Positions 31,636-52,714 of a stretch of 64,000 bases of DNA are shown piece after piece. Source of the DNA: Vulcanimicrobiota bacterium (GTDB lineage: Bacteria > Vulcanimicrobiota > Vulcanimicrobiia > Vulcanimicrobiales > Vulcanimicrobiaceae). The stretch is taken from NCBI GenBank assembly GCA_963777315.1, contig CAVZQC010000005.1, forward strand, positions 178,600 through 242,599, written 5' to 3'. The translations under genes were made by a program, and so were the position numbers. Below the pieces are notes generated by a model. The model saw only the letters and a list, made by a program, of their open reading frames with translations. It was not told the origin of the DNA and ran no database searches. Positions within the stretch are counted from its first letter, which is position 1. Every line of letters starts with the position of its first letter.

Positions 31636-32618
31636 TGCGCCACGTTATCGTCTACGTCGAGCACAAGAGCGGCCTGACCCGAAAAGTCACATTCGAGCTG
31701 GCGACGCAAGCCCGAAAAATTGCCGACGCATTGGGCGGCAAAGCCCACGCGGTCGTCTTGGGCCAAGGTGCGGTAAAGTTGGCCGAACAGCTCAAAGCGT
31801 ATCCGCTCGACGCGATCCACGTCAGCGACGATCCGGACGTCGACAAGTACTTGCTCGATCCGGTCGTCGATTATTTGGAATCCGTCGCTCGCAGTACCGG
31901 GCCGGCGCTGCTCTTGATTCCCAATACGATGCAGGGACGCGACGTCGCCGGACGGATGGTTGCGCGCCTGGATGCCGGTCTGAACTCCGATCTGACCGAC
32001 TTCGATCTCGCGGATGGAAAAGCGATCGGCATCGGGCCCAAACTGCAGGGCTCGAGCACCGTGGCCGCAGGTTACAAAAATACCGATTACGGCGTCGCGA
32101 CGATTCGGCCCAATGCTTTTGCGGCACAAGCCGGCGGACCGGGGGCGCAAATCGTGCGCCTTGAAAAGCCGGCGGACCGGCGGTATGCGATGGTCATCGA
32201 GAACGAGGTGGAAGAAGCCTCGGGGGAAATCGGGCTTGAGGAGGCATCCGTCGTGGTCAGCGGCGGACGCGGCTTGGGCGGCCCGGAGCCGTTCACCGCC
32301 TTGCTCAAACCGCTTGCCGATGCGCTGGGCGGCGCGGTCGGCGCTTCGCGTGCGGCGGCGGACGCCGGCTGGGTACCCTACAGCCTGCAGATCGGGCAAA
32401 CGGGCAAAGTCGTCAGTCCGCCCCTGTACATCGCGGTCGGCATCTCGGGCGCGATCCAGCACAAAGTCGGCATGCAGTCGGCAGGCACCATTATTGCGGT
32501 CAACCGCGACGCCGGCGTCCCGATCGGCGAGTTTGCCGACCTGCTGGTCGTGGGCGACCTGTTCCAAATCGTGCCCGCGCTCACGGGCATGGTGCAGGAA
32601 GCCAAAACCCACGCGTGA
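31635..32618 (+). CDS. etfA: Electron transfer flavoprotein alpha subunit
   Basis: SGGRG, GASRAA, QIGQTGK, GISGAIQH. Confidence 0.93.
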   Translation: MRHVIVYVEHKSGLTRKVTFELATQARKIADALGGKAHAVVLGQGAVKLAEQLKAYPLDAIHVSDDPDVDKYLLDPVVDYLESVARSTGPALLLIPNTMQGRDVAGRMVARLDAGLNSDLTDFDLADGKAIGIGPKLQGSSTVAAGYKNTDYGVATIRPNAFAAQAGGPGAQIVRLEKPADRRYAMVIENEVEEASGEIGLEEASVVVSGGRGLGGPEPFTALLKPLADALGGAVGASRAAADAGWVPYSLQIGQTGKVVSPPLYIAVGISGAIQHKVGMQSAGTIIAVNRDAGVPIGEFADLLVVGDLFQIVPALTGMVQEAKTHA

Positions 32619-32671
32619 CAATCGACCACCGCCGCACGTTGCGTAACTACCCTCTCTAAAGGACAATTGCT

Positions 32672-43488: not shown

Positions 43489-44257
43489 TTAGTCGTTGGG
43501 CGGCAGCTGGTAATTCGGAGGCGGCACCACCGGGTTGCCCACTTCAAGCGTAACGCTCTGGTGCTCGCGCAGCGGAATGTCGGCCAACTTGCCGGCGTAC
43601 GGAACGCCGTTGACGAACGCCGTAACCGGACCGCGGAACGGACCGACGCCGTCGCTGCCCAGCGGCTGTCCCCAAATGTCGAAGAACATGCCGAGCGTGA
43701 ACGGACCGCCGCTCGGCGGACTGACGTCGCCCGCTTCGACGTGAATGATGCCGCTGGGATCGTGCGTGTGTATCCAGTACAAACACCCGCCGCTTGCAGT
43801 CGGCGACATGCCGATGAACGCTGGGATTTGCACCGGCGTGCCGTTGTAAAACAGCGACAAATGGCTGTGAATGTGCAGTGCGACTTGTTCTGTCAGCTTC
43901 GCACGGAATGCCGTCCACCACTTGACCGCGTCCGCCCGCGACGGTGTCGGAGATGATGCCTTTACCGATGTTCGGCACGGGAAAACCGGTCGCTTTGCCC
44001 ACCGCCTGCCCATCCTTGAGTTTGATCGGCTTGGAAGTGGGTGAAGGTCCGGGCGTGGGCGTGCTGATGTTGAACGCCAGCGTCCGCGCACGCGAGGTGT
44101 TCGCATACCACGTCGAGATGCCGAATCCCGCGAGCACCAGCACGATGACCGCTGCGAAGCCGATGTAGATCGGCGTCATGGGATCGCGCTTTCGCGGCGG
44201 CGGAGAAGCGCCTCCGCGCGAATTTCGGCGGCGTTCGGCGCGGGATGGCTGACTCAT
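43489..44257 (-). pseudogene. Membrane-anchored His-rich hypothetical protein, frameshifted near 43895
   Basis: ...VDGIPCEA in one frame continues as TEQVALHIHSHL...LYWIHTHDPSGIIHVE in another. Confidence 0.7.
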
Positions 44258-44264
44258 GGCGCCG

Positions 44265-45287
44265 TTAGTTGACCCCCGCAGCGGTTTGGGCCTGCGCGGG
44301 GTCGAGCCGGCGGTCTGCAATCAAATAGTTTCGAACGTAATCGTCGACCGCCGTACTCAGCGGCGTCACCGGCTCGGTGTAGCCGGTGGAACGCAGCCGC
44401 TCGATCGCCGCGCACGTGTGATACTGATATTTATCGCGCAGCGCGGCCGGCATGTCGATGAACTCGATGCGCGGCGGAACGTTCAGCGCCGAAAAAATGG
44501 GACGCACGAGCTCGAGCCACGTGTGCGCGATGCCTGAGCCCACGTTGAAGATGCCGCCGCTTTGCTGCCGGGCCAAGTGCAGCGTCATGGCGACGGCATC
44601 TTTGACGTAAATGAAATCCCGCCGTTGTTCGCCGTCGCGATAGTCGCTGCGGTGGCTCTTGAACAGCCGGATGCCGCCGGACTCGCGAATTTGGTGGAAC
44701 GCTTTGTCGACCAGACTGCGCATGTCGCCTTTGTGCTGCTCGTTGGGGCCGAATACGTTGAAGTATTTTATGCCGGTGATGCGATCCAGCAGTCCCGTAT
44801 CGCGAGCATGCACGTCGAAACGCTGTTTGGAGTAGGCGTACATATTGAGCGGGCGCAGCGTATCGAGGTTCAAGTCGTCGCGCAAATCGTGCTCGAGCGC
44901 GCCGTACGTGGCGGCGGAGGAGGCGTACACGAAACGAACGTCCCGCTCGACCGCCCATTGGGCGACGTTGACGGTATAGCGGTAGTTGTTGCGCATAAGG
45001 AATGCGGCGTCCGTTTCGGTCGTTGACGAGCAGGCGCCGAGGTGAAACACCGATCGCACTTCGGGCAAAGAGCCCGGCCGTTCCGCAACGAGCGACTCGA
45101 ACGCATCGGCTTCGACGTAATCGTGAAAGCGCAACGGGACCAGGTTCTTCCATTTCTCGGACCTATCGAGGCGATCGACGATGATGACGTCGTCGATCCC
45201 TCGAAGATTGAGCGCCCAAACGATAGCGCTGCCGATGAAGCCCGCGCCGCCGGTGACGACGATGCGCCCACTGTCGAGATCGTGCAT
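44265..45287 (-). CDS. hldD: ADP-L-glycero-D-manno-heptose 6-epimerase
   Basis: TGGAGFIGS, HLGACSSTTE, YASSAATYG, PLNMYAYSK, YFNVFGPNEQHKG. Confidence 0.92.
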   Translation of the reverse strand: MHDLDSGRIVVTGGAGFIGSAIVWALNLRGIDDVIIVDRLDRSEKWKNLVPLRFHDYVEADAFESLVAERPGSLPEVRSVFHLGACSSTTETDAAFLMRNNYRYTVNVAQWAVERDVRFVYASSAATYGALEHDLRDDLNLDTLRPLNMYAYSKQRFDVHARDTGLLDRITGIKYFNVFGPNEQHKGDMRSLVDKAFHQIRESGGIRLFKSHRSDYRDGEQRRDFIYVKDAVAMTLHLARQQSGGIFNVGSGIAHTWLELVRPIFSALNVPPRIEFIDMPAALRDKYQYHTCAAIERLRSTGYTEPVTPLSTAVDDYVRNYLIADRRLDPAQAQTAAGVN

Positions 45288-45303: not shown

Positions 45304-47604
45304 CTAGAACGGCGCCGTTACCCGCAGCATAACGGTACGGCCGGCAGCGATTTGCGTGGTGTTGAAGCCGTTGGCGATCTTGATGATGTAGGGATGATCG
45401 AGCAGGTTCTCGACGCTCAGATCGAATCCCAATGACCGATCGCCGTTGATGCCCGGCTGTTTGCCCACAGCCGCGTCGAACGTCAGATGCGATGCAAGCC
45501 GGGTGGCCCCGCTTTGGAACTCGACCGGATACCCCGTTCCGTATTCGCTTTGCAGGGTCGTAAACCACGCGTTTGCATGTCCGAAACGATGCGTGTACGC
45601 GCCGTTGGCTTCCCAGGTTTGGTCGTGATCCTCGTCTTGCCACGCCAAGTTCGACACGTCGCCGGGCGCAAACAAGAACGTCGAACCGGAGACGCCCGCG
45701 GCCTCGGCGTGCGAGTACGTTCCCGATAGGAACCACGTGTCCGCCCCGTGCCCCCGGCCGTCCAGGCGAGTTTCAAAGCCTTCGTCGCGGCCCACGGCGT
45801 TGTTGAAGACGGCAAACAGCGGCGTGTTGAGCAACTGCGTCGTGTCCAAAACGTTCACGGCGTTTCGGCGGAAATAATTCACGTAGCCTTTGAGCGACGA
45901 GCCGAACGTGTGCGCGACGCCCATCTCGAAATAGGCGTCGCGTTCGGGCTTGAGATCGTACACCGGCGTCGTCGCGCAGCCTTGCAGCACGACGCAGTCC
46001 TGACGCACGTCCTCCAGCGACGGCGCGGCATACATTCGCCCGTAGTAAAAGTGCACGACGTTCTTGTCGTCGGGCGCGATGTTCACGCCGATGCGCGGGC
46101 TCAGCTGCCAACCCCCTGTGAAACCGCTCGAACGATCGTAGCGCAAGCCGTAGTTGACGCTCAGCACGCGCGACGGCGACCATTTGTCCTGCGCGTAGAG
46201 TCCCAACTGCGAGCCGGCCTGTGCCACCGAGGTCGCGTGCGGCAAATACGGCAGTGCGGGGTTAGGTGGTCCTGCGCTTGCGGGGGCCGCGATGAGCTCG
46301 TCGTCGGTGTAGTACTCACGGCTCACGTCCGCGCCGATCTTGACGGCGTGATGCGCGCTCGCGCGCAGTTGCGAAATCCGCACGCCGGCATACGTCGCGC
46401 GCTGATCCTGGCGCAAACCGGCCAAGTACTGATCCGACAGCGTGGCGTGGACGTCCTTTTCCAAGTCGCCGTCGTAAGCGACCCGCGTGTAGCGCACCCA
46501 CGGAATGAACTGGAAAACGCCGTTGCCGTCCTTGGAGGTCGCGGTGAAATTCAGGTTCGCATAACGGTCGTACTCGCGCTGGACGTCGTCGGTTCCGGGC
46601 AGAGCGACCTGCGGATCCACCGCATTGCCGCGATCGGTATTGATGGGAATCTGGAACTGAGCGAATTGGTTGGACAAATCCAGCGCCAAAGTTTGACGCG
46701 TCCCCAGCGGCGTGATGAAGCGTAGAAATTGATCCGCCTGCGAGGAACCGTCGTGGATCGGATCGTAGGTGGGCGCATCCAAACCGCGGTCGGAGTGCTG
46801 GGCGTTCGCGCTCAAGAAGAGCTCGGAAGATCCGAACTTGAACGCTTCGTCCAAGCTCGTCAGCGCTTGGCCCTCGTTGCCGCCGCCGATGGTCAGACGG
46901 CCTTGCCGCGGGCGCTGCAGGTCTGCTAGGCGATTGGTCTGCACGTTGACGACCGCGCCCATGCGGTTGCCGCCGTATTCTGCCGGAAAGGCGCCGGTGA
47001 AGACTTCGACCGAATCGACGTTTTTGGGATCGATGATCTCGGCGAAGTTCGAGGTCGTGCCTTGCGGCATGGGCGCTCCGTCGATTTCGTACGTAACGCC
47101 GTGGAAGCCGTGTGCGACGGGTTCGTTGTATGAAAAACGCACGATTCCGGGAACGGTTTGCACGATGCGATCCAAACTGTTGTCGGCAGGCAGCGCCGCA
47201 AGCTGCTGCCGGCTCAAGACGTTGGACGAAATGGGCGTGCCGGAGGCTCCGGCGCGACCGGCAACGTTGACCGTGCCGATGACTTTGAGGTCTCCCAGCG
47301 TGAAGTTGACGGTCAAGATTTGATCCGACGACACGGAAACGGCAAGTTTCTTTTCCGCCACGCCCGGATACGATCCCGTTAGCGCATAGTCGCCGAACGG
47401 AACCTGCGCGAAGACGTAATTACCGGCAGCGTCGGTCGTGGTCGTCAGCAGCGACCCGTCGCCGCGCAGCGTCATTCGAACGCCCGCGTGGGGTGTGTTG
47501 TCGACTAAAACGTTGCCGCGCACTATTCCGGTGTCGGCAGCTGCAGCGGGAAGCGCAGCAAAGCAGACGAAGGCGGCAAGCGCCGCCGCTACGATTTTGA
47601 ACAT
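45304..47604 (-). CDS. TonB-dependent receptor with N-terminal carboxypeptidase-regulatory-like domain
   Basis: Plug motif GAFPAEYG; GLRYD, SPRIG, LKPE, ENLLD; C-terminal F. Confidence 0.88.
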   Translation of the reverse strand: MFKIVAAALAAFVCFAALPAAAADTGIVRGNVLVDNTPHAGVRMTLRGDGSLLTTTTDAAGNYVFAQVPFGDYALTGSYPGVAEKKLAVSVSSDQILTVNFTLGDLKVIGTVNVAGRAGASGTPISSNVLSRQQLAALPADNSLDRIVQTVPGIVRFSYNEPVAHGFHGVTYEIDGAPMPQGTTSNFAEIIDPKNVDSVEVFTGAFPAEYGGNRMGAVVNVQTNRLADLQRPRQGRLTIGGGNEGQALTSLDEAFKFGSSELFLSANAQHSDRGLDAPTYDPIHDGSSQADQFLRFITPLGTRQTLALDLSNQFAQFQIPINTDRGNAVDPQVALPGTDDVQREYDRYANLNFTATSKDGNGVFQFIPWVRYTRVAYDGDLEKDVHATLSDQYLAGLRQDQRATYAGVRISQLRASAHHAVKIGADVSREYYTDDELIAAPASAGPPNPALPYLPHATSVAQAGSQLGLYAQDKWSPSRVLSVNYGLRYDRSSGFTGGWQLSPRIGVNIAPDDKNVVHFYYGRMYAAPSLEDVRQDCVVLQGCATTPVYDLKPERDAYFEMGVAHTFGSSLKGYVNYFRRNAVNVLDTTQLLNTPLFAVFNNAVGRDEGFETRLDGRGHGADTWFLSGTYSHAEAAGVSGSTFLFAPGDVSNLAWQDEDHDQTWEANGAYTHRFGHANAWFTTLQSEYGTGYPVEFQSGATRLASHLTFDAAVGKQPGINGDRSLGFDLSVENLLDHPYIIKIANGFNTTQIAAGRTVMLRVTAPF

Positions 47605-47610
47605 TGGAGC

Positions 47611-47649
47611 CTTTCCTAAACGAACGCAGTGAAGAGCGGTTTAGGAAAG
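47611..47649 (-). promoter_or_regulatory. Hairpin sequestering the RBS of the TonB receptor
   Basis: Perfect 11-bp inverted repeat CTTTCCTAAAC/GTTTAGGAAAG covering the SD AGGAAAGG. Confidence 0.75.
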
Positions 47650-48174
47650 AATCGGCGGCGGCCGCGAATACAAACGGCGCGTATGGGGGAACGATTTCAG
47701 TGCGTGCGGGCTGCGATGCCGCGGCAGCAGGCACGCCCGTTCGAGCGAGTGCAGATGTTCGCCGTGCGCGAGCAATGCCAGCGCAACGGCGGCGAGAGAA
47801 CGTGCGAGCAGCGAAATGGCCAGGCGAATCAACAGCGATGCGGCCACCATCGCCACGGCCACCGCGGCAAGCGGTATGCCGTGCGCGCGTTCGCACGATT
47901 CGAGCGCGGCAAACCATGCCGCCCCGGAGAACAGCATCAGCGGAACGCGCGGCGCGCAAGCTCGAAGGCGCGAGGCGAGGATGCTGCCTTGAGCCGCGTC
48001 GCGCGAGCTTAGGGCAACGGCGACCGCCAGAGCAAAGGCGCACCCCGAAAGGGCGGCGCCGTGCATGGCGCCGCCGACTGCGTGGCTCTGCCCAAAGACC
48101 AGCGCGTGGGCCAAGAGCGCCACCGGCAATCCAAGCAGCAACGCCGTCGCGGCATTGCGCGGTTTGAGGCTCAC
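47641..48174 (-). CDS. Membrane protein with C-terminal RPPP (putative arrest/leader peptide)
   Basis: Several TM segments and His residues; ends RRLYSRPPPILS; GTG overlaps the MCO stop. Confidence 0.7.
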   Translation of the reverse strand: MSLKPRNAATALLLGLPVALLAHALVFGQSHAVGGAMHGAALSGCAFALAVAVALSSRDAAQGSILASRLRACAPRVPLMLFSGAAWFAALESCERAHGIPLAAVAVAMVAASLLIRLAISLLARSLAAVALALLAHGEHLHSLERACLLPRHRSPHALKSFPHTRRLYSRPPPILS

Positions 48175-49604
48175 GAGCGGTACACGACCTCGGTCATCAT
48201 TCCGTCCATCATATGAATCTCGTTGTGGCAGTGCAACAACCAACGTCCGGGCGGAGAGTCGGCCCGGAAGCGCCAGGTCAGCGTCCCGGTATAGGCGCGA
48301 ACCAGCGACGTGTCCTTGGGCAGCGGGCGCACCATGCGCGCACCGTCGACTTCGATCACCTCAAAGACGTGCCCGTGAAGGTGCATGGGGTGGTCCATGT
48401 CGGTCGTATTCTTGAAATGCACTTCCACGACGTCGTTTCGGTTGACGAGGATCTTTTGCGTGTTGGGATACGTCTTGCCGTTGAGCGTCCATTTATTGCT
48501 GCCCCAGTCGCCGCCGCCGATCGTGAAATGGTACGAGCGCGTCGGCGCGGGCGGCGCGGAACCGCCGGTGCCTCCCGCGTTCTGATAGGTAAAATAATCG
48601 ACGCCTTCCATGGTTTGCGGGCTGCTCGCGGGCGCCGCGTTTTCCATGCCGGGAGTGTACAGCACCGCCGCCTGCTGGTACGCGAGCGGATCGCTGGAGA
48701 TGCCCTGCAGCAGCCATGCTCCGGGCTTGGTGATTTCCGCCCATGCGTCATACCGCTCGCCCACGCCCACGCGCAGCGCGTCGACTTGCAGTGGGCGCTG
48801 CAAACGATTGCCGTCGGTGTGCGTGACCGTCAAGCGATGTTCCGCCAAGCGGACGTACCGCGTTTGCGTCGGGTTCGCATTGAGAACGCGCAGACGAATG
48901 CGCTGGCCCACTTTGACGGGGAGCTTGCGCGTGTTCGGATACGATTGCCCGTTGATGCAGTGCGCGGCGTACGCGACTTCGTCGCCCATCTTGTCGTCCG
49001 GTTTCATCTGCAGCATTTCCGGCGAGCCGATCGGATCGACCATCGGCGCGGTGCTGGTTCCCATCATGGCGGCCTGAATGGTGGCCATCTTCGGAACGTC
49101 GTGAAAGATCAGCGCGAACTCTGCGTCGGCGGGCTCGTCTTTCGGATCCTCCACGACGATCATTCCGAACAGCCCGCGCGCCAAGCCGTCCGAGACGTGA
49201 TCGTGGTACCAGCGCGTCCCCGGGGGGCCGGGCGTGAATTCGTACAGGAACGATTCGCGATCCGGAACCGCGCTTTGCGTGACGCCGTCGACGCCGTCCA
49301 TCTTGTTGGGGAGAATCATTCCGTGCCAGTGGATCGTTGCCGGTTCACCGCTGGTGTTGACGAACTTCGCGCGCAACCGCTGTCCGTGATGCACTCGAAT
49401 GAGCGGGCCCGGAATCGTTCCGTTGAACGCCAGGCCCGCGAACGCAACGCCGGGCGTGGGCGAGAACGACAACGGCGCGGACGTGAGCGTATAATCCAGA
49501 ACGTCGCTCGCCGATGCAAGACGCGAGAGCGGCGGCAGCGCCGCGACGATCATCGCGCCGGTTCCGGCTCGCAAAAAAGCGCCGCGGCTGAGCCGGCGTT
49601 GCAC
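48171..49604 (-). CDS. Tat-exported multicopper oxidase
   Basis: RRLSRGAFL; HWHG, WYHDH, HPMHLHGH, HCHNEIHMMDGM. Confidence 0.92.
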   Translation of the reverse strand: MQRRLSRGAFLRAGTGAMIVAALPPLSRLASASDVLDYTLTSAPLSFSPTPGVAFAGLAFNGTIPGPLIRVHHGQRLRAKFVNTSGEPATIHWHGMILPNKMDGVDGVTQSAVPDRESFLYEFTPGPPGTRWYHDHVSDGLARGLFGMIVVEDPKDEPADAEFALIFHDVPKMATIQAAMMGTSTAPMVDPIGSPEMLQMKPDDKMGDEVAYAAHCINGQSYPNTRKLPVKVGQRIRLRVLNANPTQTRYVRLAEHRLTVTHTDGNRLQRPLQVDALRVGVGERYDAWAEITKPGAWLLQGISSDPLAYQQAAVLYTPGMENAAPASSPQTMEGVDYFTYQNAGGTGGSAPPAPTRSYHFTIGGGDWGSNKWTLNGKTYPNTQKILVNRNDVVEVHFKNTTDMDHPMHLHGHVFEVIEVDGARMVRPLPKDTSLVRAYTGTLTWRFRADSPPGRWLLHCHNEIHMMDGMMTEVVYRS

Positions 49605-51382
49605 TACTGTCCCACGTTCAAGGGCACGTCCATCGACGAGCCGTCGTACTGCACTTTGATCGTCCACGGGCCCCCCATCGAGAAGACGATCTTGCCCGTA
49701 AAGACGTTCGGGTCGCTCGGCGACGCGCTCAGATGCACCAGACGCGTTTGCATCGTGCTCGTTCCCATTTGCATGATCGGAACAACGCTCACGTCCTTGG
49801 GCGGCGTTCCCGAAAAGCGTACCGAGATCGTTGCATCGGTCACCGGCGTGGCGGGATCGAACGTCACGACGGGCGCCTGCTGATTCGTGCCGCCGTCCAA
49901 GCTCGACAGATAAGCGACGATATCGTCGACTTGACCGCTGGTGAAACCGAAATTCGGCATGGGCGCGCGCGGATGCACGATGAAATCCGCGATTTGCGCA
50001 GGCGCGAGCCGGTGCTCGATTCCGAACAGCGCCGGTCCGATCGAGCCGCCTTTGAGTTGCGCGCCGTGGCAGCCGGCGCAGCCGTTGGCCTGCACGAGTT
50101 TCGCGCCCGCATTCGAGTCCCCGGTCTGGGGCGCAACGCTCGGCGCGCTGGTCGCAGCGCTCGCCGGCGCGGGGGATGCCGGCGCAACGGCCGCTACCTC
50201 GGGCGCAGAAGCCGCGTTCGCCGAAACGAGCCGGCTGTTCGCCAGATATCGCTTACCATATTGATACGGACCCGCGTACGCAAAGCGAAACGCGATCTGC
50301 GGGTGGGAACCCGGATACATCCCGAGCTCGCTGATGAGCGCGAGATTGGGCAACACGTTGTGCGACAGATCGAGCACAATTTGCCGGTTGAGCGTGTCGC
50401 TGGAAGCCACGTCGTAGCGAAGCGCGATATGGTTGCGCCAGCCCAGATCGCGTTCGGCCTCGAAGAAAAAGCCGTTCAAATCGACGCCGTATTCGCCGAC
50501 GTCCGGGTTTGAATCTCTGCCGTGGTAGTACATCGTTTGGTAATGCCACGCGCTGTCTTGGTAGCCGAAATACACGCCGCTGCGCGTAAAGGTATTGCTG
50601 AGCAAAAACGTGCCGTCGGGATCGTCGACCGGAGAATCGCCGCGCATTGCAACCAGCCCGACGCTCCACGGAATCTGCATGCCGCCGTAGGACACGTTGA
50701 CGTCGAGCGTGCGCGGATTGTGCGTGCGGTTGAAGTCGAGCGCGTCGCCGGTTGGCCCGCTTCCGGTAAGCCATGACAAGTTGTACATGAACTCGTTCGA
50801 CATGCCGCTGAAAGCGACGCCCCAGCGCGCTTCGTTGGGATTGAAGTCGTTCTGCCCGGTGGTTTGGTCGGCCAGCAGATAATCGCTGATCGTCCAGGCG
50901 TGGGCCGGCATGAACGGAAACGGCGTGTGGAACTTGCCCAGCTGCAGCGAATTGGTGCCATGCAACAGTCCATTCCACGACAGCCACATCTGTTCGGTCT
51001 GGCCGATGACGCCCGAGTCGATGACGTGCTGTTCGGCGTACCACGTGAAGTTTCTGCCGAGAAATCCGCCGGCCAGCAGCGAGAGATCGTCCACCATCGT
51101 CGATCCGGGATGATCTTTATTTGCCAGCAGCGAGGTGATGTAAATGCGCGCGGAGATGGGCAGCGCGCTGTCCTGCAGATGGCGGTTGAGGATTTGAAAG
51201 TTCGTCATCATGACCGACATGCCGTAGCGGGTCATGCCGGGGAACGTGGTATGGCAGGTTTGGCACGAGACGCCTTGGCCGTTGGCGAAAACCGGAATCG
51301 CGTCGGCCGTTGCCGGCGCAGCTACCAGGACGAATGCGGCGGCGCAGAGCGTGCGCGCGCCGACGACGAGCAATCGGAGCAC
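49604..51382 (-). CDS. Cyc2-like cytochrome-porin fused to a second cytochrome c and a YtkA-like domain
   Basis: IPVFA...CQTCHTTFP after the signal peptide; beta-strand-rich middle; CAGCH...PMP; Met-rich C-terminus ending FSMGGPW. Confidence 0.7.
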   Translation of the reverse strand: MLRLLVVGARTLCAAAFVLVAAPATADAIPVFANGQGVSCQTCHTTFPGMTRYGMSVMMTNFQILNRHLQDSALPISARIYITSLLANKDHPGSTMVDDLSLLAGGFLGRNFTWYAEQHVIDSGVIGQTEQMWLSWNGLLHGTNSLQLGKFHTPFPFMPAHAWTISDYLLADQTTGQNDFNPNEARWGVAFSGMSNEFMYNLSWLTGSGPTGDALDFNRTHNPRTLDVNVSYGGMQIPWSVGLVAMRGDSPVDDPDGTFLLSNTFTRSGVYFGYQDSAWHYQTMYYHGRDSNPDVGEYGVDLNGFFFEAERDLGWRNHIALRYDVASSDTLNRQIVLDLSHNVLPNLALISELGMYPGSHPQIAFRFAYAGPYQYGKRYLANSRLVSANAASAPEVAAVAPASPAPASAATSAPSVAPQTGDSNAGAKLVQANGCAGCHGAQLKGGSIGPALFGIEHRLAPAQIADFIVHPRAPMPNFGFTSGQVDDIVAYLSSLDGGTNQQAPVVTFDPATPVTDATISVRFSGTPPKDVSVVPIMQMGTSTMQTRLVHLSASPSDPNVFTGKIVFSMGGPWTIKVQYDGSSMDVPLNVGQ

Positions 51383-51387
51383 AGTAA

Positions 51388-51442
51388 ACCTCCGTTACGG
51401 CGTGGTCGGGTATGAAGGATCGACCGTTACCGCGTGGGAGGT
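51388..51442 (-). promoter_or_regulatory. Hairpin sequestering the RBS of the cytochrome-porin gene
   Basis: ACCTCC within the Pro codons pairs with SD GGAGGT; inner stem GGTCG/CGACC. Confidence 0.65.
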
Positions 51443-51981
51443 GGGCGTTGAAAGCGAGACGTTCCGGCGTGCACCGCGAGCGCATACGCAATCGGCGAGG
51501 GCCGGCGCGAGATATAGGAACTGACGGTTTGCTGCAGCCGCTCGAGGTAACGGCTTGCGCCGTGCGCGCTGCGCGCGCACGCGGCCAGCAGCCGAGCAAA
51601 CAGTGACAGCACGTAAGCGCACGCCAACGCCACGACGATTTGCACGACGATGCCGAACCAAATGGCATGCGCGCCTTCGGCATGCTCGATCGCTGCGAAC
51701 AACGCGATTTGCGCGACTGCAAGGCGCGGCCACAACTCGGCGCACGATCGCTCCGCGGCCGTGTGCGTGAAAATGTTCGAGCGGCACAGCGATTCGGCGG
51801 CGCACAGCAGTGCGAGCGCGACAAGCAGCGCGAGCGAGCATTCGAGCGCCGGCGCCATCCAGGCGTGGCGACCGTCGGCCGCGCTGCGCCCCGAAAGCGC
51901 ATAGGCAAGCCCGTGCCCGGCCAAAGTTGCCGGAACGACGGCTGCAAGCCATACCGGAAGCGAGCGTTTTACGCCCAACAT
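51427..51981 (-). CDS. Membrane protein with C-terminal RPPP (paralog of 47641-48174)
   Basis: TM segments; GHGLAY, AIEHAEGAH; ends TSRFQRPPPTR. Confidence 0.7.
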   Translation of the reverse strand: MLGVKRSLPVWLAAVVPATLAGHGLAYALSGRSAADGRHAWMAPALECSLALLVALALLCAAESLCRSNIFTHTAAERSCAELWPRLAVAQIALFAAIEHAEGAHAIWFGIVVQIVVALACAYVLSLFARLLAACARSAHGASRYLERLQQTVSSYISRRPSPIAYALAVHAGTSRFQRPPPTR

Positions 51982-52165
51982 TACCACAACGATACTAGCG
52001 CCCTTCCCCGGTGGGGAAGGGTCGGCGGTCGTCCCTAGGGGGGCTTTGTCCCTGCGGGCGGGGACCTTTTGCCTTCCGAGCCACGGAACCCGGGAAGGCG
52101 GCGGGAGTGTTCAATGGAATACTCGCGACCCCCGCCCCAGGAAGTGAATACCGTCGGAGAGAGTC

Positions 52166-52714
52166 ATGACTGCCCGTTTACCGGTGGAAAACAGCGATAC
52201 CGTCAGTCTGGTGTGCGCACTGCTCGTGCGCTATCCCGAGATTGCGGCGATGCGCTGCACCCCGGGTGAGGGCACCGTGCGGTTTTCGTTCGCGGTAACG
52301 GCCCGGCTCGACAAAGCGATGCAGCGTACCGTGGCCGACGAAATCGCCTCGCACGTCGACGGGTTCTTTGCCCTGAACCGCGACGGCGGCCAGGTGCGCG
52401 TCGAATGTGAATCCGACCGGCCCATGAGCTTCGTCCACGTCACGCGCGATCTCGAGACCTTCACGAAGGACGAATTGGCGATGCTCACCGCCCTATTCGC
52501 CGAACGTTTCGGTACGGCGTTGGTGCGCAATCCGGTTCCGGACGAGCATCCCGACGAAGATCCCGCGCTGCAGGAAGAGCTGGCCGAGTCCGCCATCGAA
52601 GCCTTGCGTGACCCGGCCCAATCCAAGAGCTTGGTCGGGTTCCGCGAAGAGAAGACCATCCTGGTCTACTTTTTGAAATCTCAAAAGAAAGCAAAGGCGT
52701 CGGCCCGCAGATAG
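52166..52714 (+). CDS. Hypothetical protein
   Basis: RBS GGAGAG; typical codon usage; operonic with ymdB. Confidence 0.7.
   Translation: MTARLPVENSDTVSLVCALLVRYPEIAAMRCTPGEGTVRFSFAVTARLDKAMQRTVADEIASHVDGFFALNRDGGQVRVECESDRPMSFVHVTRDLETFTKDELAMLTALFAERFGTALVRNPVPDEHPDEDPALQEELAESAIEALRDPAQSKSLVGFREEKTILVYFLKSQKKAKASARR

Follow-up and report, generated by a model that had tools for sequence, protein, structure and literature searches.

In the cutFOG operon of Rhodobacter capsulatus, copper-induced stalling on the DUF2946 (PF11162) protein CutF opens a stem over cutO's Shine–Dalgarno (SD) sequence (PMC9973294; bioRxiv 10.1101/2025.02.05.636593). CruR (Bp2923) of Bordetella pertussis, also of DUF2946, carries CxxC 45 residues before RAPP and is associated with a 162-nt intergenic region and Rho-dependent termination (PMC9426467); its arrest has been shown (PMC12992588), and its stalling is released by copper, whereas that of CutF is induced by copper (bioRxiv 10.1101/2025.02.05.636593). 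Four-transmembrane (TM) RAPP/RGPP arrest peptides have been described in Streptomyces lividans (SLIV_18480, SLIV_27375, SLIV_33595 as well as SLIV_33605), and SLIV_18480 has a predicted His3-Met copper site (PMC12992588). In SecM, MifM, ApcA, ApdA, ApdP and uDF_RQH, C-terminal arrest disrupts a stem over the downstream SD, a localisation signal supplies the pulling force, and the gated genes are secA, secDF or yidC (PMC10987492). In this study, we analysed a 64,000-nt stretch (the window; positions 178,600 to 242,599 of contig CAVZQC010000005.1, assembly GCA_963777315.1) from a soil bacterium of the phylum Vulcanimicrobiota (Eremiobacterota), whose genome is 90% complete, and investigated two membrane leader proteins, A and B, encoded in one operon. 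Our reading, to which we assign a probability of about 0.6, is that A and B are cis-acting arrest leaders that sense extracytoplasmic metal, most likely copper, pause by default when metal is scarce and serve as switches in series.

The operon lies on the minus strand in the order leader B, cytochrome–porin gene, multicopper oxidase gene, leader A and TonB-dependent receptor gene. Leader B (51427..51981; ATG start, with an additional in-frame GTG at 51987) is a four-helix membrane protein of 184 amino acids (aa) that belongs to subfamily B and ends in RFQRPPPTR; leader A (47641..48174; GTG start) is a four-helix membrane protein of 177 aa that belongs to subfamily A and ends in LYSRPPPILS. The RPPP codons are CGC CCA CCT CCC in B (51436..51447, residues 179–182, the putative stall site) and CGG CCG CCG CCG in A (47653..47664, residues 171–174); by analogy with RAPP, the third motif residue of B would occupy the P site (PMC12992588). 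An earlier note, made from the letters of this stretch, had described two paralogous multi-TM proteins, each directly upstream of an exported-protein gene. Both reading frames and all the shared motifs that it quoted are present, and the genes behind A and B encode the TonB receptor and the cytochrome–porin, with stop-to-start gaps of 36 and 44 nt, respectively. The alignment of A with B covers 108 aa at 35% (E 1e-7), and the two family profiles match along their whole length (hhalign probability 97.8%); on this sequence comparison, they are anciently diverged paralogues of one unannotated four-helix membrane family.

Pfam and NCBIfam held no family for A, B or an alignment of 149 members, and returned only weak FtsX-like TM noise. 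Single-sequence searches of 61 related genomes detected A in 20 and B in 17. With a joint profile, matches were obtained in 138 genomes out of 251 from the phylum, namely 133/160 in the host's own family (50 of these 160 genomes being one genus), 3/3 and 1/18 in two near families and 0/69 in other families; these tallies include genomes flagged as unpublished (G028, G029, G021, G206, G234, G250 and G262), on which none of the other results depends. The profile also matched 352 clusters at 50% identity; among the best 150, the source names were Ca. Cybelea, Baltobacteraceae, Vulcanimicrobiaceae and Ca. Rubrimentiphilum. Homologues were annotated as hypothetical, one stray label excepted, and the Atlas likewise places the family in Vulcanimicrobiota. 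The mean column identity of the 149-row alignment is 27%. Within it, E99, R179, P181 and P182 are invariant, H23, E102 and P180 are nearly so, and the C-terminal motif is RPPP in 143 rows and RAPP in 6, so that the Arg and the last two Pro occur in 149/149. The spacing from E102 to the motif Arg is 72–79 residues in all 148 rows counted, despite a divergent spacer sequence. A quick tree, used solely for the A/B split, placed A and B in two clades (SH-aLRT 99), and each subfamily keeps its own ligand set: H31 (103/103), H38 (79/103) and H98 (95/103) in A; H39 and Q91 (both 46/46), D36 (38/46), E/D47 (39/46) and C135 (41/46) in B. The corresponding key residues of the window proteins are H23, H31, H38, E92, E95 and H98 in leader A and H23, D36, H39, E47, Q91, E99, E102 and C135 in leader B.

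For the analysis of loci, 130 loci gave 109 de-duplicated profile hits, of which 102 had the motif (the other seven were locus-end fragments or frameshifted pieces); removal of three loci from unpublished genomes left 99, and removal of near-identical spacers left 72. The motif lies at most 10 residues from the stop in 96/99 loci, and the distance from the Arg codon to the next start is 51–117 nt (median 76; 99 loci). In this genome, the family profile finds A and B only. In a six-frame scan, R[APG]PP stood at the end of 35 open frames out of 38,078, and five of them besides A and B had a downstream SD flag; one of these (window 32014–32646) was checked and is a shadow frame over what appears to be an ETF-alpha-like gene. 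The other RPPP-ending frames were considered as family members and rejected on the profile result. Two tandem near-identical short frames ending in RGPPQ(S/P)HG, which are not family members, occur in a repeated stretch at G000:C2:510799-511138 (+). A locus pattern search with A gave 469 matches, none confirmed, the alignments being too divergent for it; a plasmid tblastn with B gave no match, and six actinobacterial CopC plasmid loci did not match the family.

In leader A, an 11-bp perfect stem begins one codon (Ile) after RPPP. Its 5′ arm (47639..47649) covers the Leu-Ser-stop codons, its 3′ arm (47611..47621) contains the SD AGGAAAG of the TonB receptor gene, and about half of the 5′ arm would lie beneath a modelled ribosome stalled on RPPP. 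In leader B, ACCTCC within the Pro codons (51437..51442) is complementary to the SD GGAGGT of the cytochrome–porin gene (51388..51393). Both pairings are thus as the earlier note had reported them. Folding supported the hairpin of A (z −3.6; 1/200 shuffles as stable), whereas for B (z −2.0; 8/200) the hairpin alone is only modest. Across the family, the codon of the third motif residue is the rare Pro codon CCT in 72/99 loci (46/72 non-redundant), against a background of 2,441 of 38,005 Pro codons genome-wide (6.4%) and 13/127 middle prolines of other PPP runs, and CCTCC occurs inside the motif in 83/99 loci. Where the SD is AGGAAG-like, as at leader A, its complement sits in the codons after RPPP. 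In seven chosen AGGAAG-type loci, double changes were found in 3/12 pairs but the covariation term was not favourable (+0.29).

The effect of a paused ribosome was modelled as a blocked footprint ending 14 nt past the start of the P-site codon. With the ribosome on the motif, the median cost of opening the SD decreased from 8.7 to 5.05 kcal/mol (72 loci); the drop was at least 2 kcal/mol in 53/72 loci, and the SD paired within the footprint in 57/72. The corresponding values for 45 crudely called gene pairs of the same genome with similar gaps were a median of 4.4 kcal/mol, a drop of that size in 1/45 and pairing within the footprint in 2/45; downstream starts were picked for having an SD-like word in loci and controls alike. 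At leader A, the cost fell from 13.5 to 2.9 kcal/mol. After five loci with broken downstream frames were dropped, synonymous recoding weakened the masking in 61 of the remaining 67 (8.8 to 6.0), and footprint/SD duplexes were stronger when matched (mean −14.5) than when mismatched (−11.2), with 0/5,000 permutations as low. The codon bias and the recoding and permutation tests show that the SD-masking hairpin is under selection. Together with motif conservation, the modelled opening makes it very probable that stalling on RPPP controls unmasking of the SD, as the earlier note had proposed. Two irregular leaders were also observed: leader B of L108 (G226) lacks a stop after RPPP and continues in frame into the cytochrome–porin with its GGAGG SD kept, which reflects a fusion, the loss of a stop or an error in the sequence, and a leader in L049/L018 (G009) has a long tail running over the next start.

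Family hydropathy shows four hydrophobic segments, and the mean K/R counts are 2.4 at the N-terminus, 0.4, 2.1 and 0.4 in loops 1–3 and 8.0 in the tail. These counts point to an N-in/C-in topology, which would place H23, H38/39, ExxE and H98/105 on the outer side. On the basis of this topology, the conserved outward His and ExxE are the putative metal site. The earlier note had suggested copper binding to His/Cys; the His part agrees with the alignment, while the Cys of LESCERAH is not conserved and CxxC occurs in only 6/149 members. The sole well-conserved Cys is a single residue restricted to subfamily B (41/46), predicted at the inner end of TM4. AlphaFold gave four-helix models (pLDDT 87.1 and 84.7). 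Foldseek of these models against the PDB returned nothing at E 0.001, and the best VIA-align hits were ABC/FtsX TM bundles at Z 7.2, a score that common arrangements of helices also reach. The ribosome exit tunnel spans about 30–40 residues, and the constant length from E102 to the Arg fits a chain that spans the tunnel after TM4 insertion.

The gated genes were classed by N-terminal motifs with hand corrections, and representatives were checked in Pfam. The 99 loci comprise 53 TonB receptors, 24 cytochrome–porins, 7 CopC–CopD fusions, 10 unnamed exported proteins and 5 unclear cases. Behind A-type leaders are the 53 receptors, the 7 fusions, 4 unnamed exported proteins of ~300 aa, 1 cytochrome–porin and the 5 unclear frames; behind B-type leaders are 23 cytochrome–porins and 6 unnamed exported proteins. 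No secA, secDF or yidC was found among the 99 downstream positions (5 unclear). The fusion, represented by L090:1380-3416 (679 aa), joins CopC, CopD and a signal peptidase I-like peptidase S26 domain. The unnamed exported proteins of ~300–320 aa (HVVCGDR and HGxAG types; L044:529-1440, L076:2512-3420 and L119:5249-6220) had no Pfam or NCBIfam match and are possibly TonB-independent outer-membrane metal channels. In the window, the first gated gene (49604..51382, −) encodes an exported protein of 592 aa with an N-terminal CxxCH, a cytochrome c domain (PF13442/PF00034), a middle that is probably porin-like and a YtkA-like C-terminus (below cut-off); a PDB sequence search with the porin-like region gave 0 matches. 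The second (45304..47604, −) encodes a TonB-dependent receptor of 766 aa (PF13620, Plug and PF00593). Between them, the multicopper oxidase (48171..49604, −; 477 aa, twin-Arg N-terminus) has a GTG start that overlaps the stop (TAG) of the cytochrome–porin gene and a TGA stop that overlaps the GTG of leader A.

The doubled arrangement is shared by relatives. In long loci, the cytochrome–porin is mostly followed by an oxidase; the order B, cytochrome–porin, oxidase, A was found in G000, G035, G027 and G011 (a frameshifted assembly), and the same B-to-A order in G099 and G226, where the edge of the locus truncates A. The oxidase stop overlaps the start of A in 5/5 non-redundant doubled loci. Another genome, G243, has two A-type leaders in one cluster. 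The copper setting claimed by the earlier note is also evident in the multicopper oxidase, the CopC–CopD fusions and the SCO1 genes nearby.

Compared with the described systems, the family fits the RAPP-like arrest-peptide class as judged from sequence, with a conserved C-terminal motif, TM segments and a masked co-directional SD. It shares with CutF co-translational membrane targeting, an extracytoplasmic metal motif, a Pro-rich C-terminus, a stem-loop over the next SD opened by stalling, a multicopper oxidase in the operon and involvement of elongation factor P (EF-P) (PMC9973294; bioRxiv 10.1101/2025.02.05.636593), at least as predicted for A and B. However, the small CutF protein is secreted, has a cleavable signal and carries CxxxC, whereas A and B have four TM helices and His/Glu residues, and the anti-SD of the present family is often inside the Pro codons. 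PF11162 had no match in A, B, the 149 members (E 0.05) or the genome. With neither a conserved CxxC/CxxxC nor the form of a small soluble sensor with a single signal, the family does not appear to belong to DUF2946. The likeness to CruR lies in the C-terminal R-x-P-P, the fixed sensor spacing and the TonB-dependent receptor downstream (PMC9426467); unlike CruR, A and B have ExxE 72–79 residues before RPPP, gaps of 36–44 nt and SD masking. As in SecM, MifM and the Apc/Apd peptides, C-terminal arrest would disrupt a stem over the downstream SD, but 0/99 classified targets are secA, secDF or yidC.

The closest architectural match is that of the S. lividans peptides, which also combine four TM helices, a C-terminal R-x-P-P, conserved His and metal genes downstream (PMC12992588), but belong to another phylum and gate other targets. 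In the RGPP leaders that precede YcnI in Streptomyces, linked to SLIV_18480 by description alone, Q78/H82/M122/H126 are conserved and ExxE is absent; in place of a His3-Met site, the present family has His and ExxE, with no conserved Met in its membrane region. Against a shallow alignment of 50 such leaders, hhalign gave 0.5–22%, with only the Pro-rich tail aligned; remote homology to this group, represented in the comparison by those presumed relatives of SLIV_18480, may exist. The Atlas lists an Actinomycetota cluster at feature score 0.94. Streptomyces/Kitasatospora plasmids carry four-TM RGPP leaders upstream of YcnI (L139:1663-2313, L141:1707-2432 and L142:1670-2305); in L139 and L142 the Pro codons spell CCTCC and GGAG precedes the next start, the same RNA device in an apparently unrelated family.

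The earlier note had considered a polytopic RPPP leader used twice in one operon to be undescribed. Precedents exist in print both for polytopic RAPP/RGPP leaders and for copper leaders that unmask an SD (SLIV_18480, CutF and CruR), whereas we found no publication on this family or on the doubled, probably coupled arrangement in a search made mostly without subscription journals. The strings RPPP and Eremiobacter are absent from the main text and searched supplements of PMC12992588. What is new is the family itself, not detectably homologous to DUF2946 or the tested Streptomyces YcnI leaders, its His/Glu site, RPPP as a family motif, and the presence, within a single and probably translationally coupled operon, of two leaders whose ligand sets differ. 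Metal-sensing arrest leaders would thereby be extended to a poorly known soil phylum, on a membrane scaffold that is apparently independent and has a His/Glu site instead of a Cys one; surveys restricted to RAPP/RGPP miss the whole RPPP family. With the anti-SD within the stalling codons, stall site and switch become one element.

We propose that the nascent leader inserts four helices into the inner membrane with its conserved His and Glu on the outer face, and that the basic spacer of ~45 residues, divergent but conserved in length, keeps RPPP from the peptidyl-transferase centre until insertion has taken place. During a pause on RPPP, the ribosome would cover the anti-SD, in the Pro codons of B or just behind those of A, freeing the next SD and turning translation on. 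Pausing is probably the default, and metal binding may tighten or pull the bundle and shorten the pause, so that envelope metal-uptake and metal-enzyme genes would be made when metal is scarce. Metal sensing itself we consider likely, and copper narrowly the better choice of metal. The polarity of CruR is modestly preferred over that of CutF by analogy: importer-type targets favour an operon that is on when metal is scarce, and the CutF precedent leaves some weight on the reverse. The two switches would act in series, B gating the cytochrome–porin, overlapping codons carrying ribosomes to the oxidase and then to A, and A gating the receptor. A more elaborate version, which we regard as speculative, is that A (His-rich) and B (His/Gln/carboxylate) are different thiol-free, membrane-embedded metal sensors that differ in metal or direction and are chained by overlapping codons into a two-input gate. 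The receptor would then be translated only if B had allowed the cytochrome–porin/oxidase module and A then stalled. If so, this would be the main metal-responsive control of the lineage, acting over a putative outer-membrane electron-transfer module.

Several observations weigh against this proposal. The same-genus genome G001 has the cytochrome–porin without leader B. For the commonest target, the TonB receptor, the best NCBIfam scores were far below cut-off and assigned no substrate. The membrane region of the leaders has no conserved CxxC or Met, and His/Glu sets suit Fe(II), Mn, Zn and Ni as well as Cu(II). With the modelled ribosome on RPPP, the opening cost at leader B falls from 10.4 kcal/mol only to 6.9, and in 19/72 loci the cost is lowered by less than 2 kcal/mol. 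The genomes are related, so the conservation and masking statistics are overstated. RPPP is the strongest PPP stall context and is rescued by EF-P in Escherichia coli, as is the RPPP of NlpD (PMC4176338), and the present genome encodes EF-P; the stall of A and B may thus not be of the EF-P-resistant RAPP type. Conversely, the Ala-to-Pro change that creates RPPP kept arrest of ApdP in Bacillus subtilis (2.4 vs 1.9 units) and gave partial arrest for ApdP in E. coli and for ApdA (PMC12992588).

The best-surviving alternative, in our view improbable but to be taken seriously, retains the stall-and-unmask switch and changes the signal: either the metal would be one of Fe(II), Mn, Zn, Ni and Co, or the two leaders would differ in metal or polarity. 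Invariant ExxE plus His in the absence of a thiol motif agrees with a metal other than copper, but a metal can be named only for those targets that are copper proteins (CopC–CopD and the multicopper oxidase), and SCO1 genes lie nearby. A division of signals between A and B could explain their different ligand sets, their two clades in the quick tree and their mostly separate targets, and opposite polarity has a precedent in CutF, which stands upstream of an oxidase and is induced to stall by copper, whereas CruR is released (bioRxiv 10.1101/2025.02.05.636593). However, the same unnamed exported protein of ~300 aa stands behind leaders of either subfamily (4 loci each), and in one case (L004) the gene behind an A-type leader is a cytochrome–porin, which favours one shared signal.

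It is considerably less probable that the leaders, like MifM or ApcA, report on membrane insertion or on the state of the envelope (Sec/YidC activity, proton motive force or outer pH), His/Glu then serving for packing or protonation instead of binding metal. Every target identified is an exported or envelope protein, the spacer length fits pulling after TM4 insertion, and RAPP-like peptides were first found as protein-localisation monitors (PMC10987492); yet the 99 classified downstream positions hold no sec or yidC gene and do include CopC–CopD, and insertion monitors have no need of invariant outward His/Glu. Equally doubtful is that the membrane protein is a working subunit, whether a metal carrier or a reductase partner for the receptor or the oxidase, with RPPP and hairpin giving only constitutive translational coupling through an EF-P-sensitive pause: the confident AlphaFold fold, the strong EF-P-rescuable pause at RPPP (PMC4176338) and the PepSY-TM membrane partner that accompanies CruR-type receptors, in a report on the copper receptor CrtA (PMC12914433), would suit it, but the family always stands immediately upstream of at least four unrelated protein types, plain coupling elsewhere in the operon uses overlapping stop and start codons without such a motif, and column identity is 27% outside a few residues. 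Under the preferred reading of A and B as metal-sensing leaders, the operon, with its two leaders that differ in ligand set, offers a built-in comparison of why metal releases CruR but induces CutF, and the pair also bears on whether RPPP escapes EF-P.

The sequence upstream of the leaders was also analysed (60 nt in 66 related loci). An SD of the leader's own was found in 4/66 loci. The pattern AGG-N18-21-GAA, chosen after looking at these sequences, ends 7–16 nt before the leader start in 29/66 (shuffles: mean 0.8, maximum 4). The motif, which we take to resemble a sigma-H-type promoter, suggests near-leaderless transcripts. Leader B of the window instead has TAGTAT 10 nt before its ATG, and a promoter/terminator scan gave nothing above shuffles. 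A C/G-rich palindrome upstream of B (about 52006–52026), presumably similar to a CsoR operator, was rejected as such, since it lacks conservation and a search for PF02583 found nothing in the 90% complete genome.

Beyond the operon, the neighbourhood at 40.8–43.5 kb includes two SCO1/SenC genes, a redoxin gene and MauE. In this stretch, as in several relatives, the TonB receptor is followed by an NAD-dependent epimerase gene (window 44265–45287, −). The gene after it (window 43489–44106, −) matches no family; homologues of that gene are also seen upstream of leader B or of the cytochrome–porin. On the other side, a divergent gene of 182 aa (52166..52714, +) has no Pfam or NCBIfam family; in many related loci a homologue of it occupies the divergent position upstream of the leader, whatever the target, and a short conserved word (GTACGACGC) stands between this gene and the leader in many A-type loci.

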